Positions 1 to 5,713 of a stretch of DNA of 6,439 nt are shown one piece after another (the first letter of the stretch is position 1; each line of letters starts with the position of its first letter). The position numbers and the translations under genes are program-made. The stretch lies in IMG/VR virus record IMGVR_UViG_2695420565_000002. One strand, written 5' to 3'. This stretch comes from a virus. Its lineage: Duplodnaviria; Heunggongvirae; Uroviricota; Caudoviricetes. Below the pieces are notes generated by a model. That model saw only the letters and a list, made by a program, of their open reading frames with translations. It did no database searches and was not told where the DNA came from.

Positions 1-34
1 GGACTTCAGGGGAAAAACGAGTATTTTTAGTCAT
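1..34 (-). CDS. IS3-family transposase OrfA, N-terminal 11 codons only (partial, continues beyond window)
   Basis: ATG at 34..32 (minus) preceded by AAGAGGT SD with 8-nt spacer; translation MTKNTRFSPEV; sits inside the IS terminal region. Confidence 0.65.
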   Translation of the reverse strand, partial: MTKNTRFSPEV

Positions 35-88
35 CCTGTTTACCTCTTTCTCAGGAAGTTTAGTCTCCAGGATTCCCGGGGCGGTTCA
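1..88 (-). mobile_element. Left end of an IS3-family insertion sequence (IS629/IS1203-like), partial; rest of element lies beyond the window start
   Basis: Minus strand reads 5'-TGAACCGCCCCGGGAATCCTGGAGACTAAACTTCCTGAGAAAGAGGTAAACAGG-ATG from position 88 downward: a TGA-initiated terminal inverted repeat followed by an SD and an ORF start encoding MTKNTRFSPEV, which I recall as the N-terminus of IS629-group OrfA. Identification is from memory, not a search. Confidence 0.75.
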
Positions 89-560
89 GTAAGGGGGTAT
101 TTGTATTTATTGTCTTTTGTATATTGTCTTTTGTGTTTAGCTGACTTGGCTTATACCCATTAGCCGACTTGGCTAATGTTTTATTAGCTGTTTTAGCTAA
201 TGTTAAGCTGTCCTGGCTAATCCACTGAGAAACCACCTTGTTCACTCCGATTTTCACGCCATCAGCAATGAGGAATTTACGCTCAATAAGCTGGCGCTTG
301 GCAGCGCAAACATGAGTGTGATGAATACCTGTCATGGCTGCTATCTGCGTGTTTGTGAGTCGATCCATCGGCTTATTGAATCCGTATGTCTTGCGCATGA
401 TAGCGAGCATCACCTTCAACTGCCGGACGGTTAAATCAGCCATCAGCAGACTGTCGGTAATCTCGTTAGCAACGCGCATGAAACCATCTTCGGTATCTGC
501 CACGCGATGCTCCACGACCTCCAGTTGAGGCCTGTAATCAGCTAACTTAACGACGCCCAT
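60..560 (-). CDS. O: Lambda O-like replication initiator, N-terminal iteron-binding domain intact; C-terminus replaced by IS-derived codons (truncated by IS insertion)
   Basis: 166-aa ORF; motif LTVRQLKVMLAIMRKTYGFNKPMDRLTNTQIAAMTG resembles lambda O N-terminal domain (LTKRQFKVLLAILRKTYGWNKPMDRITDSQL, recalled). Strong SD AGGAG 6 nt upstream of ATG at 560. Iterons lie inside the coding sequence as in lambda O. Codon 158 spans the IS junction at 88/89, so the last 8 residues and the stop (62..60) are encoded by the IS inverted repeat. Confidence 0.8.
   Translation of the reverse strand: MGVVKLADYRPQLEVVEHRVADTEDGFMRVANEITDSLLMADLTVRQLKVMLAIMRKTYGFNKPMDRLTNTQIAAMTGIHHTHVCAAKRQLIERKFLIADGVKIGVNKVVSQWISQDSLTLAKTANKTLAKSANGYKPSQLNTKDNIQKTINTNTPLLNRPGNPGD
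98..136. repeat. AT-rich region of the replication origin, with a 13-bp direct repeat TATTGTCTTTTGT at 108..120 and 122..134
   Basis: Directly visible; strongly T-rich on the plus strand, immediately flanking the iteron array, matching the iterons-then-AT-rich layout of ori-lambda when read in the O coding direction. Confidence 0.55.
137..220. repeat. Origin iterons: four imperfect 17-18 bp dyad-symmetric repeats (TTAGCyGnyTTrGCTAA)
   Basis: Copies at 137..153 TTAGCTGACTTGGCTTA, 160..176 TTAGCCGACTTGGCTAA, 184..200 TTAGCTGTTTTAGCTAA, 203..220 TTAAGCTGTCCTGGCTAA; spacing 23, 24, 19 bp; embedded in the O-like gene. Confidence 0.7.
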
Positions 561-708
561 GTTTCACTCCTGCTTTGGCTAGTCTGTAAACACCAACAAG
601 GCGTTCTACGAACGCCCTGTTATTTGCTGCGGCTACCACTAATCCCTCAGGTGAATCAGGGTGTCGAATCTCTTCTTTTTCCTGGTATTTCTTACGACGT
701 TTTGTCAT
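547..708 (-). CDS. Small basic hypothetical protein (53 aa) between cII and O, not in the supplied ORF track
   Basis: ATG at 708..706 preceded by AGGAG with 5-nt spacer; translation MTKRRKKYQEKEEIRHPDSPEGLVVAAANNRAFVERLVGVYRLAKAGVKHGRR; stop TAA at 549..547 overlaps the first codons of the O-like gene, suggesting translational coupling. No homolog recognised. Confidence 0.4.
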   Translation of the reverse strand: MTKRRKKYQEKEEIRHPDSPEGLVVAAANNRAFVERLVGVYRLAKAGVKHGRR

Positions 709-717
709 AATTACTCC

Positions 718-785
718 TGTAGATTGATCCAGTCTTTCTACATCAGGCCTCGAAGAATTCGCCGTTCTTCGGGGCTTTTTCTTTT
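718..785 (+). ncRNA. Candidate OOP-like antisense RNA ending at an intrinsic terminator inside the cII 3' end
   Basis: Plus-strand hairpin with 11-bp stem 747..757/765..775 (one G-U pair), 7-nt loop, then TTTTTCTTTT 776..785; antisense to the last about 40 nt of cII. Possible extended -10 TGtCATAAT at 703..711. The 5' end is a guess. Confidence 0.4.
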
Positions 786-1024
786 GTCAGGTAATCGGCA
801 AGCCGCTTAGTCAATTCAGCCATTTCATCGTCTTCGATTCCGTATTCCAGAACAGCAAGCATCATGCTTACCTGCGAGAAGAAACCATTCTTCCATCGGC
901 TTACCTGATATTCAGGAACCCCCATTGCTCGAGCGAATGTCTTCTGCCCCATCAGTGCCAGTTTGTTCAGCAAGGCCGACTCGATGCGAGCCGCTTTCTT
1001 GCTTTTAGTTGCAATAGTACCCAT
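743..1024 (-). CDS. cII: Transcriptional activator CII (lambda cII homolog)
   Basis: 93 aa; RIESALLNKLALMG...QVSRWKNGF...FSQVSMMLAVLEYGIEDDEMAEL parallels lambda CII (RIESALLNKIAMLG...QISRWKRDWIPKFSMLLAVLEWGVVDDDMARL, recalled). SD AAGGA 8 nt upstream; located downstream of cro and nutR as in lambda. Confidence 0.9.
   Translation of the reverse strand: MGTIATKSKKAARIESALLNKLALMGQKTFARAMGVPEYQVSRWKNGFFSQVSMMLAVLEYGIEDDEMAELTKRLADYLTKEKAPKNGEFFEA
747..785 (+). terminator. Rho-independent terminator, antisense to cII 3' end
   Basis: GCCTCGAAGAA-ttcgccg-TTCTTCGGGGC followed by TTTTTCTTTT. Confidence 0.7.
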
Positions 1025-1100
1025 AGATAATTTCCTTAATGATTAGATAGAGTTGGCTTCGCAAAGAAACGCAAAACCATAGAGATTTGTTTCTGGTAAT

Positions 1101-1132
1101 GCCCTTTTTCAGGGCGGGGATGTGTAAGAGCG
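1101..1132 (-). promoter_or_regulatory. nutR antitermination site (boxA + boxB)
   Basis: Minus strand reads CGCTCTTACACATCC (boxA, 1132..1118) then GCCCTGAAAAAGGGC (boxB, 1115..1101); boxB matches lambda nutR boxB as recalled; placed between cro and cII. Confidence 0.8.
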
Positions 1133-1140
1133 GGAATGTC

Positions 1141-1356
1141 TTAAGCGGCTTTGTGTTCCGGCGGGAACACGTCATCAAGACTGACTTTTGCGCCTAACTT
1201 GTTTAGGCACTCAACAAGAGCACGGCATGTTTTAAGGTCTGGGAAGCGACGACCAGATTCCCAATGTCCGATAGCTCCCTGTGTGCATCCAACTGCCTTA
1301 GCAAGTGTTGTTTGAGAGATATTCAGTGACTCTCGATATTTTCGTAGGTTGCTCAT
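1141..1356 (-). CDS. cro: Cro-like HTH repressor (71 aa), non-lambda immunity type
   Basis: ATG at 1356 preceded by GGAGG (4-nt spacer). [26 protein letters not shown] resembles the cI HTH in this window ([23 protein letters not shown]). Divergent from cI across an operator region. The track's longer ORF begins at a TTG inside the predicted pR -10 and is not used. Confidence 0.8.
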
Positions 1357-1382
1357 ATGCCCTCCATAGTAACCATGAAACA

Positions 1383-1411
1383 ATAATACGATATGTACTT
1401 TTAGAATGCAA
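1383..1411 (-). promoter_or_regulatory. pR-like promoter for cro/cII/O
   Basis: Minus strand -35 TTGCAT (plus 1406..1411), 17-bp spacer, -10 TATTAT (plus 1383..1388); operator OR1 lies in the spacer. Confidence 0.6.
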
Positions 1412-1457
1412 GCAAAAATACATCTTGTGCATGGATGGTTTTAGTACAGAGCGTAAT
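1385..1457. promoter_or_regulatory. Right operator region with three 15-bp candidate repressor sites of the form ArTAC-N5-GTnnT
   Basis: 1385..1399 AATACGATATGTACT, 1417..1431 AATACATCTTGTGCA, 1443..1457 AGTACAGAGCGTAAT; related to the perfect dyad AGTACAAATCGTACT at pL (2264..2278). Confidence 0.5.
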
Positions 1458-1472
1458 AATAAGGGTATGAAA

Positions 1473-2126
1473 ATGAAATGGTATGAACTGGCTAGATCCA
1501 GAATGAAAGAGCTCGGCATAACTCAAGAGAAGTTAGCTGAAGAGCTTGGTATGACGCAGGGTGGAATTGGTCACTGGTTGCGCGGATCTCGTCATCCATC
1601 TCTTGACGAGATTGGTGTGGTGTTTAAATACCTTGGTATTGATAACGTCTCATTCAACCACGACGGTACATTTTCACCTGTTGGCGAATACTCATCTGCC
1701 CCCGTTAAAAAACAATATGAGTACCCTGTTTTTTCTCATGTTCAGGCAGGGATGTTCTCGCCTGAGCTTAGAACCTTTACCAAAGGTGATGCGGAGAGAT
1801 GGGTCAGCACAACCAAAAAAGCCAGTGATTGTGCGTTTTGGCTTGAAGTTGAAGGTAATTCCATGACCGCGCCAACAGGATCGAAGCCAAGCTTTCCTGA
1901 CGGGATGTTAATTCTCGTTGACCCCGAGCAGGCTGTTGAGCCAGGTGATTTCTGCATAGCCAGACTTGGTGGTGACGAGTTTACCTTCAAGAAACTGATC
2001 AGGGATAGCGGTCAGGTGTTCCTACAGCCACTAAACCCGCAATATCCAATGATTCCATGCAATGATAGCTGTTCCGTAGTAGGGAAAGTTATCGCCAGCC
2101 AGTGGCCTGAAGAGACATTTAGTTAA
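1473..2126 (+). CDS. cI: CI-type prophage repressor with LexA/S24-like autocleavage domain; hybrid (novel N-terminal HTH domain, lambda-type C-terminal domain)
   Basis: From [38 protein letters not shown] onward the protein matches lambda CI C-terminal domain almost residue for residue (recalled); N-terminal 80 aa differ and carry an XRE-type HTH. Start chosen at ATG 1473 (AAGGG 7 nt upstream); ATG 1467 is an alternative. Confidence 0.92.
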
Positions 2127-2157
2127 CAGCCTCACCACTCTAAAACACACAACAATA

Positions 2158-2188
2158 ACCCGACCTTAGCGTCGGGTTTTCTTTTTCC
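2158..2188 (+). terminator. Rho-independent terminator downstream of cI
   Basis: ACCCGAC-cttagc-GTCGGGT 7-bp stem followed by TTTCTTTTTCC. Confidence 0.7.
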
Positions 2189-2251
2189 AAAATATAAACC
2201 CATTAAATACAAAGCGTTATAAAAAAGTAGTTATATTTAGAACATTTTGTA

Positions 2252-2548: not shown

Positions 2549-2881
2549 ATGGATGCACAAACACGCCGCCGCGAACGTCGCGCAGAGAAACAGGCTCAAT
2601 GGAAAGCAGCAAATCCCCTGTTGGTTGGGGTAAGCGCAAAACCAGTTAACCGCCCTATTCTCTCGCTGAATCGCAAACCGAAATCACGAGTAGAAAGCGC
2701 ACTGAATCCGATAGACCTTACAGTGCTGGCTGAATACCACGAACAGATTGAAAGCAACCTGCAACGTATTGAGCGCAAGAATCAGCGCACATGGTACAGC
2801 AAGCCACGCAGTGAAATGGGTGTGACCTGTTCAGGCCGCCAGAAGCAACGCGGAAAATCAATTCCAGCTTATTACGATTGA
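2549..2881 (+). CDS. N: Antitermination protein N
   Basis: 110 aa beginning MDAQTRRRERRAEKQAQWKAANPLLVGVSAKPVNRPILSLNRKPKSRVESALNPIDLTVLAEYH, matching lambda N from memory, including the arginine-rich boxB-binding motif; AGGAG SD; downstream of nutL. Confidence 0.95.
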   Translation: MDAQTRRRERRAEKQAQWKAANPLLVGVSAKPVNRPILSLNRKPKSRVESALNPIDLTVLAEYHEQIESNLQRIERKNQRTWYSKPRSEMGVTCSGRQKQRGKSIPAYYD

Positions 2882-4498: not shown

Positions 4499-5206
4499 AT
4501 GGATTTGAATAAATTCGATGAGCCATTCAGCCCTGAAGATATCGAATGGCGAATACAGCAAAGCGGTAAAACACGCGATGGCAAAGTGTGGGCTATGGTG
4601 CTGGCTTATGTCACGAACCGGGCAATCATGAAACGCCTGGACGATGTTTGCGGCAAAGCAGGATGGCGCAATGAATACCGCGATATTCCCAACAACGGCG
4701 GCGTTGAATGCGGCATATCGATAAAGATTGATTCCGAATGGGTAACCAAATGGGATGCTGCTGAAAACACGCAGGTAGAAGCCGTCAAAGGTGGTCGTTC
4801 CGGTGCAATGAAGCGCGCTGCCGTTCAGTGGGGAATCGGTCGGTATCTGTATAACCTTGAGGAAGGTTTCGCACAAACATCTCTCGATAAAAAGCAGGGG
4901 TGGCACAGGGCAAAACTGAAGGATGGAACAGGATTTTACTGGCTACCTCCATCGCTGCCGGGATGGGCAATCCCAGCATCAGATAACAAACCATCACCAG
5001 AAAATACCAACCAGAAATCTCCATCGGTTGACTGCGAACAAATCCTGAAAGACTTCAGCGATTATGCATCAACAGAAACTGACAAGAAAAAACTCATAGA
5101 ACGTTATCAGCATGACTGGCAATTAATGGCTGGCAATGAGGATGCGCAGGCTAAATGCGTTCAGGTAATGAACATCAGAGTTAACGAACTAAAACAGGCG
5201 GCATAA
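4499..5206 (+). CDS. Rad52/Sak-type single-strand annealing protein (phage recombinase)
   Basis: 235 aa; motifs AYVTNRAIMKRLDDVCGKAGWRNEY and GAMKRAAVQWGIGRYLYNL match the Rad52-superfamily signature (ALKRxxxxFGIGRYLY) as I recall it; immediately followed by ssb. Confidence 0.8.
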   Translation: MDLNKFDEPFSPEDIEWRIQQSGKTRDGKVWAMVLAYVTNRAIMKRLDDVCGKAGWRNEYRDIPNNGGVECGISIKIDSEWVTKWDAAENTQVEAVKGGRSGAMKRAAVQWGIGRYLYNLEEGFAQTSLDKKQGWHRAKLKDGTGFYWLPPSLPGWAIPASDNKPSPENTNQKSPSVDCEQILKDFSDYASTETDKKKLIERYQHDWQLMAGNEDAQAKCVQVMNIRVNELKQAA

Positions 5207-5713
5207 ATGGCAAGCAGAGGCGTAAATAAGGTGATTATCCTTGGTCGGGTAGGACAAGACCCGGAAGTTCGATACTCACCATCAGGAACAGCGTTCGCTA
5301 ACCTGACAATAGCCACGTCAGAACAATGGCGAGATAAAAATACTGGCGAGCAAAAGGAATTGACTGAATGGCATCGTGTTGCTGTATCCGGGAAACTGGC
5401 TGAGGTCGTGGGGCAGTATGTGAAAAAAGGTGATCAGATTTATTTCGAGGGAATGCTGAGAACCAGAAAGTGGAAAGACCAGTCAGGGCAAGACCGTTAC
5501 ACAACCGAGGTTCATGTCGGAATTAATGGCGTGATGCAAATGCTTGGCGGCATTGGCGACAGCAAACAACAAGCAGCCAGCAGGCAATCACAGAAGCCAC
5601 AGCAGCAATCATCACCAGCACAACACAACGAACCTCCGATGGATTTTGACGACGATATACCCTTTGCACCAGTAACTCTCCCCTTCCCTCGTCACGCTAT
5701 TCACGCAATTTAA
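5207..5713 (+). CDS. ssb: Single-stranded DNA-binding protein SSB, with C-terminal extension beyond the DDDIPF motif
   Basis: N-terminal OB-fold region [23 protein letters not shown]...[15 protein letters not shown]...[19 protein letters not shown] closely parallels E. coli SSB; Gln/Pro-rich linker; [10 protein letters not shown] is followed by 15 more residues ([15 protein letters not shown]) before the stop. Confidence 0.93.

Follow-up and report, generated by a model that had tools for sequence, protein, structure and literature searches.

The 53-codon open reading frame (ORF) located between the cII-like gene and the O-like replication initiator of the DNA analysed here (6,439 nucleotides of the IMG/VR virus record IMGVR_UViG_2695420565_000002, hereafter the window) is in all likelihood a genuine, conserved gene of the HK97 gene 53 family, which is already known and annotated and whose function is uncharacterised. 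Beyond the gene call, the present analysis contributes evidence of selection on the ORF, an overlap of invariant length with the initiator gene, a start cassette of the lambda O type, a portable unit comprising the ORF plus ten initiator codons, and a hairpin embedded in the coding sequence.

Genomic context, family membership and conservation

The window contains a lambdoid immunity-replication region in reverse orientation (Table 1). The gene order cII – small ORF – initiator on the pR strand is common to the window, HK97, Sf6, ES18 and an E. coli prophage. The cII-like ORF ends at position 743, leaving a cII–O gap of 182 bp (561–742), whereas the same gap in lambda is 32 bp long (cII end 38653, O start 38686), which bears out the short lambda spacer claimed in the preliminary description. 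The position of the ORF, its Shine-Dalgarno (SD) sequence with a 5-nt spacer, and a stop codon lying inside the O start region were likewise found as that description had given them. The downstream O-like gene is interrupted by the end of an insertion sequence. Homology to intact 273-aa relatives, whose gene is 822 bp long, stops at position 89, and the gene is reduced here to 166 codons. Positions 1–88 match a feature annotated as “IS3 family transposase” and are multicopy: in 3542 of 5426 E. coli genomes, a match extends over 80% or more of the query. Because this element lies inside the O-like gene, the prophage is defective in replication, and the question of an initiator-linked role for the small ORF does not arise here. 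An Rfam search over window positions 1–2200 gave nothing exceeding noise.

Table 1. Positions of genes, signals and predicted elements in the window.
Feature	Position	Strand	Details
IS3-family insertion sequence end	1..88	minus	100% identity; interrupts the O-like gene
O-like replication initiator (Phage_rep_O), truncated	60..560	minus	PF04492, E=1.9e-33; ATG 560..558
Small 53-codon CDS, HK97 gp53 / Sf6 gp42 / ES18 gp58 family (PHROG 1331)	547..708	minus	ATG 708..706; stop TAA 549..547
Overlap of small ORF and initiator	547..560	minus	14 nt, ATGGGCGTCGTTAA; small-ORF stop within the first five initiator codons (MGVVK)
SD of the O-like gene, AGGAG	567..571	minus	6-nt spacer; within small-ORF codons 46–48
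mRNA hairpin	595..621	minus (mRNA sense)	12-bp stem, 3-nt loop; codons 30–38 (N-R-A-F-V-E-R-L-V); dG −19.9, z −4.1
Putative pO-like promoter of an antisense RNA	683..711	plus	−10 CATAAT 706–711; TGn 703–705; weak −35 TGGTAT 683–688
Boundary cassette	700..733	minus	ACTGGATCAATCnACAGGAGTAATTATGACAAAA; alignment of window, lambda, HK97 and Sf6
SD of the small ORF, AGGAG	714..718	minus	5 nt ahead of the ATG; read as AGGAG 718..714, spacer TAATT 713..709
oop-like antisense RNA	719..787	plus	5′-end GUAGAUUGAUCCAG, resembling lambda oop; overlaps the 3′-end of cII
cII-like transcriptional activator, upstream neighbour of the small ORF	743..1024	minus	PF05269, E=4.1e-30
cro-like gene	about 1141–1356	minus	
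cI-like repressor	ends at 2126	plus	

The product of the ORF (MTKRRKKYQEKEEIRHPDSPEGLVVAAANNRAFVERLVGVYRLAKAGVKHGRR, 53 aa) matches phrog_1331 along its entire length (residues 1–53 on profile positions 1–53, E=1.4e-36). A tblastn search found it in 97 phage records at 74–98% identity, most of which annotate it. The annotated homologues include HK97 gp53, Sf6 gp42, ES18 gp58, epsilon34 gp49, ST104 orf27, and proteins of several Stx-converting phages. The record note of Sf6 gene 42 reads “Phage HK97 53 protein homolog,” and that of ES18 gp58 “function unknown; similar to phage HK97 gene 53.” HK97 gp53 and Sf6 gp42 share 98% protein identity with the window protein, the difference being a single residue (V35 in place of A). 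As in other members of the family, the ORF of the window falls within a range of 52–55 codons and ends 14 nt inside an initiator gene beginning MGVVK (overlap 547–560); length, position between cII and the initiator, SD–ATG cassette and overlap are the same as for HK97 gp53, with no substantive difference. Unlike in the HK97 gp53 relatives, the downstream initiator of the window is cut by the IS3-family element. The ORF had initially been regarded as unannotated and likely to be missed by standard annotation. This view did not hold: gene 53 is annotated in the original HK97 record, both PHROG and PGAP cover the family, and the majority of related public records list this ORF among their annotations. 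In an E. coli prophage of 99.3% identity, it is called by PGAP as a “hypothetical protein” (WP_000166961.1). The window itself carries no annotation.

Searches against broader collections added little to this assignment. The 53-aa protein had no matches in Pfam (E up to 1) or NCBIfam, and no match was obtained in a profile search of PDB sequences. The PADLOC models, checked for resemblance to known defence or counter-defence proteins, also gave no matches at E up to 1. When 1.84 billion representatives were searched exhaustively with an HMM, no more than 30 clusters came up at E up to 0.001; the strong matches were short ORFs of comparable size, none of which was linked to a characterised family. 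Literature searches on the HK97 gp53 family found no functional study.

Conservation was assessed in loci collected from one genome per species, and from IMG/VR by protein search and by a degenerate DNA pattern for divergent copies. The DNA pattern, which encodes HPDSPDG(L/F)V, supplied many of the divergent loci (91 stretches) and inflates the apparent constraint at residues 16–24. All 183 loci with an extractable complete ORF have an intact frame of 52–55 codons. They represent 77 distinct DNAs and 57 distinct proteins, and every length difference is in-frame. Since the frame is intact in so many related loci and distinct DNAs, the small ORF lies far beyond what chance would produce. Frameshifts or stops in related prophages, which the preliminary description had named as the observation that would speak against a gene, were found in none of these loci, and this result clearly favours a gene. 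Each of the 92 distinct flank variants has an SD core (GGAG, GAGG, AGGA or GGGG) 3–9 nt before the ATG, in agreement with a real small coding ORF that has a good ribosome-binding site (RBS).

Sequence variation in the ORF falls mostly on third codon positions, with summed entropies of 32.6, 22.0 and 64.2 for codon positions 1, 2 and 3, respectively. The dN/dS ratio is about 0.14 (pooled Nei-Gojobori, residues 4–48), with dS above 1 and synonymous sites near saturation, and it ranges from 0.12 to 0.28 in segments unbiased by the collection pattern. Residues 14–28 form the most constrained segment, although part of this constraint is due to the way the loci were collected. Protein identity drops to 57–60% in Serratia and Symbiopectobacterium, and the motifs HPDSP(E/D)GLV and FAER are retained from Escherichia to these two genera. 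These patterns of substitution indicate that the small ORF is a protein-coding gene under purifying selection.

Boundaries of the ORF and the cII–initiator slot

The 5′-end of the small ORF is a mosaic boundary. The conserved cassette that supplies its SD and ATG also begins the lambda O gene, HK97 gene 53, Sf6 gene 42, and Orf48 (DUF2740) of mEp043 and P22, and it is labelled as boundary sequence bsq5 in the Sf6 record. The sequence ACTGGATC(A/T)ATCnACAGGAGT(A/C)ATTATGACAAA is common to the window, HK97, Sf6 and lambda, where it constitutes the start of O. In lambda, as in the window, the cassette of roughly 33 nt provides an SD and an ATG (MT...) on one strand and the −10 region of oop, a putative one in the case of the window, on the other. 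The lambda cassette starts O, whereas the cassette of the window starts the 53-codon ORF, with a separate O start 148 nt downstream. Aligned with lambda O, the small ORF matches no further than the SD and first three codons, and the Phage_rep_O domain is encoded by the next gene. The N-terminus of lambda O is a recognition signal for ClpX, and it is this N-terminus that the small ORF displaces.

The strand opposite the cassette carries a candidate pO-like promoter facing codons 1–9 of the small ORF. Its lambda counterpart is TTGAGT-17-CATAAT, the CATAAT of the window being located where lambda has the pO −10, and the P22 record annotates a lambda-homologous promoter and terminator opposite the start of orf48, at the equivalent position. 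A consensus promoter scan made no call at 683..711, and the promoter of the window is inferred only, from its sequence and its homology to lambda. The oop-like RNA next to it folds into two hairpins (dG −27.5, z −5.55), and its intrinsic terminator consists of a stem at 745–777 (14 pairs) followed by a T-run (TTTCTTTTGT). Lambda and the window both have an oop-like two-hairpin RNA with a terminator over the 3′-end of cII; the arrangement of oop, pO and tO in lambda has been described previously (PMC5869508).

A different small ORF occupies the same slot in other lambdoid phages. Phages mEp043 and Sf101 share the window sequence from cII up to position 699; from the ATGACAAAA that they have in common with it, they run into another ORF, of 48 codons. 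This ORF is P22 Orf48, which belongs to Pfam family DUF2740 (PF10872; the mEp043 Orf48 matches at 8.9e-29) and occurs in 127 phage records, P22 and VT2-Sakai among them. P22 Orf48, or the HK022 gene 53 family, lies in the same slot between cII (or c1) and the initiator, is of similar size (48 aa), starts in the same cassette (ACAGGAGTAATTATGACAAAA) opposite the oop promoter, and, when folded as a single sequence, likewise shows a hairpin in the middle of the ORF. It overlaps the initiator start by 8 nt (ATGAGTAA), as opposed to 14 nt for the ORF of the window. Homology between the gp53 family and DUF2740 was considered and rejected, as hhalign gave a probability of 0.7% against the mEp043 Orf48 and only the first residues are shared. 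On this comparison, P22 Orf48 is best described as a positional analogue of the gp53 family and not as its relative. Lambda, with no ORF between cII and O, represents one of at least three arrangements of the slot. Because lambda works without a small ORF, and other phages carry the unrelated DUF2740 there, any role of the ORF would be accessory.

At the 3′-end, the overlap between the small ORF and the initiator gene is exactly 14 nt in all 168 loci with a complete downstream gene, which fits the translational coupling proposed in the preliminary description. Of the 92 distinct variants, 91 retain the SD of the initiator in the form GGAG, GGGG or GGGT. Downstream initiators are either of the Phage_rep_O type, as in HK97, or of the Sf6 gp43 type, which has no match to Phage_rep_O or any other Pfam family. 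The initiators of epsilon34 and ES18 are lambda-O-like from residue 17 (PMC2629481). Judged from these sequences, the small ORF travels with at least two initiator types, and probably with three. Nearly all of the downstream initiators begin with MGVVKLADYR or a close variant, whatever their type. Given this common start, the ORF and the first ten codons of the initiator move as one portable unit, lying between the cII/oop module on one side and an initiator body of any of these types on the other.

In overlapping-gene coupling in bacterial and phage operons, the upstream stop codon lies just past the next AUG and the next SD lies inside the upstream coding sequence. The window shares both of these features; the overlap in such systems is commonly 1 or 4 nt, whereas here it measures 14 nt and is accompanied by a strong downstream SD. 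From this geometry, translation of the initiator is probably coupled, at least in part, to that of the small ORF, in a manner that would fit termination-reinitiation or ribosome-mediated unfolding. Since the initiator has a strong SD of its own, the coupling may be weak. No slippery site was seen that would support a programmed frameshift from the ORF into O, and O starts from a conserved SD and ATG of its own. No motif matching a LexA box was seen either.

A hairpin within the coding sequence

A short hairpin is predicted in the second half of the small ORF (Table 1). Its folding energy is −19.9 when read as mRNA, compared with −13.5 for the opposite strand. Among 74 distinct sequences, 85% of the cells in the stem are paired, compared with 35–46% in slid-partner controls, and the pairing and covariation scores were unmatched by any of 500 shuffles. 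The pair 131–145, for instance, occurs as GC (32), GU (18), CG (17) and UG (7), and is unpaired in no sequence. Mapped on a neighbour-joining tree, G-to-T or G-to-C substitutions on the 5′-side occur together with C/T-to-G substitutions on the 3′-side at no fewer than three distinct points. RNAalifold, applied locally, recovers only the inner 4 bp of the hairpin.

The amino acids themselves impose much of this pairing, as Phe codons are complementary to Glu codons, and Ala codons to Arg codons. The hairpins were therefore compared with synonymous-codon randomisations (60 per sequence), and in 95% of 77 sequences the local hairpin exceeded this null in stability (mean z −2.36). Of the 12 possible pairs, 10.2 are formed on average in the mRNA sense, 8.4 in the antisense RNA and 7.7 as a DNA palindrome. 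The larger number in the mRNA sense points to a hairpin that belongs to the pR transcript, and speaks against a DNA palindrome or an antisense-strand structure. A conserved U-tract is missing and the tail differs between clades, which speaks against the hairpin as a pR-strand intrinsic terminator. That an mRNA-sense hairpin has been selected beyond the requirements of the protein sequence is a moderately supported conclusion. As to its role, we can offer only guesses, namely mRNA processing or stability, or the pacing of ribosomes ahead of the initiator start.

Possible functions of the ORF and its peptide

In the mechanism that we propose, ribosomes on the pR early-right transcript would start at the lambda-O-type site, translate the small ORF and reach its stop codon shortly after the AUG of the initiator, so that translation of the initiator would be coupled, at least partly, to that of the small ORF. 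The internal hairpin could modulate mRNA processing or stability, or the transit of ribosomes before the initiator start. The peptide, for its part, might act in trans on functions of the early-right operon, most plausibly on the expression or handling of the initiator, a tentative reading to which we give slightly less than even chances.

A purely cis-acting leader ORF, in which translation itself delivers ribosomes to the initiator start or opens it and the peptide has no function, is an unlikely alternative to a functional peptide. The invariant length of the overlap is in its favour. So is the presence of the unrelated DUF2740 ORF, with its 8-nt overlap, in the slot of P22, mEp043 and VT2-Sakai, together with the lack of any ORF in lambda, which suggests that the slot outweighs the peptide. 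The SD and AUG of the initiator also pair with small-ORF codons 16–24 in the single-sequence minimum free energy (MFE) fold, and the helices concerned (helices 4–6) are 81–90% paired across the family. This long-range pairing, however, shows almost no covariation and is not favoured over the synonymous-codon null: the unpaired probability of the initiator SD–AUG is only marginally lower than in the null (0.38 against 0.41, mean z −0.33), and the folding energy of the whole region is no lower than that of the null (z −0.19). RNAalifold found no consensus structure in the full sequence set. A long-range structure hiding the initiator RBS, seen in one MFE fold, thus finds no support in the synonymous-codon nulls. 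The strong conservation of amino acids at near-saturated synonymous sites (dN/dS 0.14, dS above 1), and the retention of both peptide motifs as far as Serratia and Symbiopectobacterium, also argue against a leader whose product is dispensable.

It is very improbable that the frame is a non-protein by-product, kept only through the pO promoter, mRNA hairpin and initiator RBS/start that overlap it. These three elements are present and together span a substantial part of the 162 nt, and the hairpin appears to be under selection of its own. Such a by-product would not account for the concentration of variation at third positions, the in-frame length differences, or the complete lack of stops in 183 loci. 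The most constrained residues (14–28) lie outside all three elements, with the reservation that their constraint comes partly from locus collection. A chance ORF, or a decayed remnant of the 5′-end of an ancestral O gene left by mosaic recombination, would be in keeping with the SD and first three codons of the lambda O start and with the mosaic junctions at both ends of the ORF, but is effectively refuted: purifying selection has kept the frame whole in several enterobacterial genera, with protein identity falling as low as 57%. Past residue 3, moreover, the ORF shows no similarity to lambda O.

Many lambdoid phages, Stx-converting phages included, carry an ORF of roughly 50 codons between a lambda-type O start cassette and the real start of the initiator, and at least two unrelated families occupy this cII–initiator slot. 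This slot, the exchange of the ORF along with the first ten initiator codons between different initiator types, and the hairpin suggest an as yet unstudied layer of control over the expression of replication initiators. Control of the initiator bears on prophage induction and on the replication of toxin-encoding phages, although such a role for the small ORF is only putative.

Returning to a peptide that acts in trans, nucleic-acid binding is one of several possible modes of action. Only the composition of the N-terminus, with a basic cluster at residues 3–7 (KRRKK), speaks for such binding, a speculative idea that the preliminary description had put forward. The AlphaFold model is a weak one of medium confidence (mean pLDDT 66.5), and consists of a basic tail and a helical hairpin; a Foldseek search of the model against BFVD gave nothing below E=7. 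Arginine-rich peptides of the lambda N type combine a basic N-terminal motif with a boxB-like hairpin that has a GNRA-like loop. The small ORF of the window has a basic cluster and a hairpin in its own mRNA, whose loop is a variable 3-nt Ala/Val codon and is not boxB-like. Autoregulation, in which the basic N-terminus would bind either its own hairpin or the initiator start MGVVKLADYR and thereby control the synthesis or turnover of the initiator, is a speculative and rather improbable extension. If it were true, the small ORF would be a portable controller of initiator dosage that is swapped together with the first ten codons of the resident initiator, and P22 Orf48 (DUF2740) would represent an independent solution to the same problem.

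The hairpin and the initiator genes downstream

The 53-codon small ORF of the HK97 gp53 family, which lies between the cII-like and O-like genes, contains a hairpin on its mRNA-sense strand (see table). In 95% of 77 homologues, this hairpin is more stable than expected from synonymous-codon nulls, and one of its base pairs occurs as four pair types with zero unpaired cases. Comparison of the genes downstream of the small ORF (those of loci L002, L011 and L106, among others, and positions 1449-2297 of the ES18 locus, L188) indicates that the ORF is followed by at least two, and probably three, different types of initiator. In nearly all of these initiators, the N-terminus is MGVVKLADYR or a closely similar sequence. 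Their LADYR codons vary synonymously; past the 14-nt overlap between the two genes, it is therefore the amino-acid sequence of the decapeptide that is conserved.

Features of the window and of the comparison loci
Feature	Locus	Position	Strand	Remark
IS3-family insertion sequence, end	window	1-88		inside O-like replication gene (60-560)
12-bp mRNA-sense hairpin	window	595-621	-	internal to small ORF
Putative promoter of oop-like RNA	window	about 683-711	+	
oop-like antisense RNA	window	719-787	+	opposite 3′ end of cII
Intrinsic terminator of oop-like RNA	window	745-777 plus T-run	+	
Early-left-operon-like part	window	2549-2881 and 4499-5713	+	
P22 Orf48 family (Pfam DUF2740) ORF	mEp043 (L187)	1893-2039		
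P22 Orf48 family (Pfam DUF2740) ORF	P22 (L189)	151-297		
P22 Orf48 family (Pfam DUF2740) ORF	Erwinia phage Midgardsormr38 (L190)	151-297		

A second family in the same slot

The slot is also occupied by a second small-ORF family, P22 Orf48 (DUF2740), which is unrelated to the gp53 family. The DUF2740 ORFs and the small ORF of the window start from the identical ACAGGAGTAATTATGACAAAA cassette. The DUF2740 ORF overlaps its initiator by 8 nt and, in single-sequence folds, also contains a mid-ORF hairpin, the version in Midgardsormr38 being shifted and 5 bp long. Some RefSeq phage records label the DUF2740 ORF as a “tail protein”, which appears to be a mis-annotation.

The oop-like antisense RNA

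The oop-like RNA forms two hairpins (dG -27.5, z -5.6). The putative extended -10 of its promoter (TGnCATAAT) overlaps the start codon of the small ORF; the same overlap is annotated in P22, and the corresponding one is known in lambda.

Insertion sequence, early-left side and host labels

A new minus-strand ORF (MTKNTRFSPEV...), which probably resembles IS629 orfA, begins at position 33. Related prophages match the window only from position 89 onwards, and their initiator is intact (273 aa). In its remaining part, the window resembles an early-left operon of lambdoid type. This part encodes an N-like antiterminator, whose N-terminus (MDAQTRRRERRAEKQAQWK) presumably resembles the arginine-rich motif of lambda N; a near-identical prophage has “antitermination protein N” annotated at the corresponding place. 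Farther along lies a 235-aa ORF, followed by one that, judged by eye, resembles a single-strand DNA-binding protein. Two loci carry non-enterobacterial names, a MAG labelled Bacillota (L004; 98% protein identity) and an assembly labelled Chryseobacterium sp. (L006; 81%). Both contigs contain this same enterobacterial lambdoid region, which probably reflects contamination or mis-binning.
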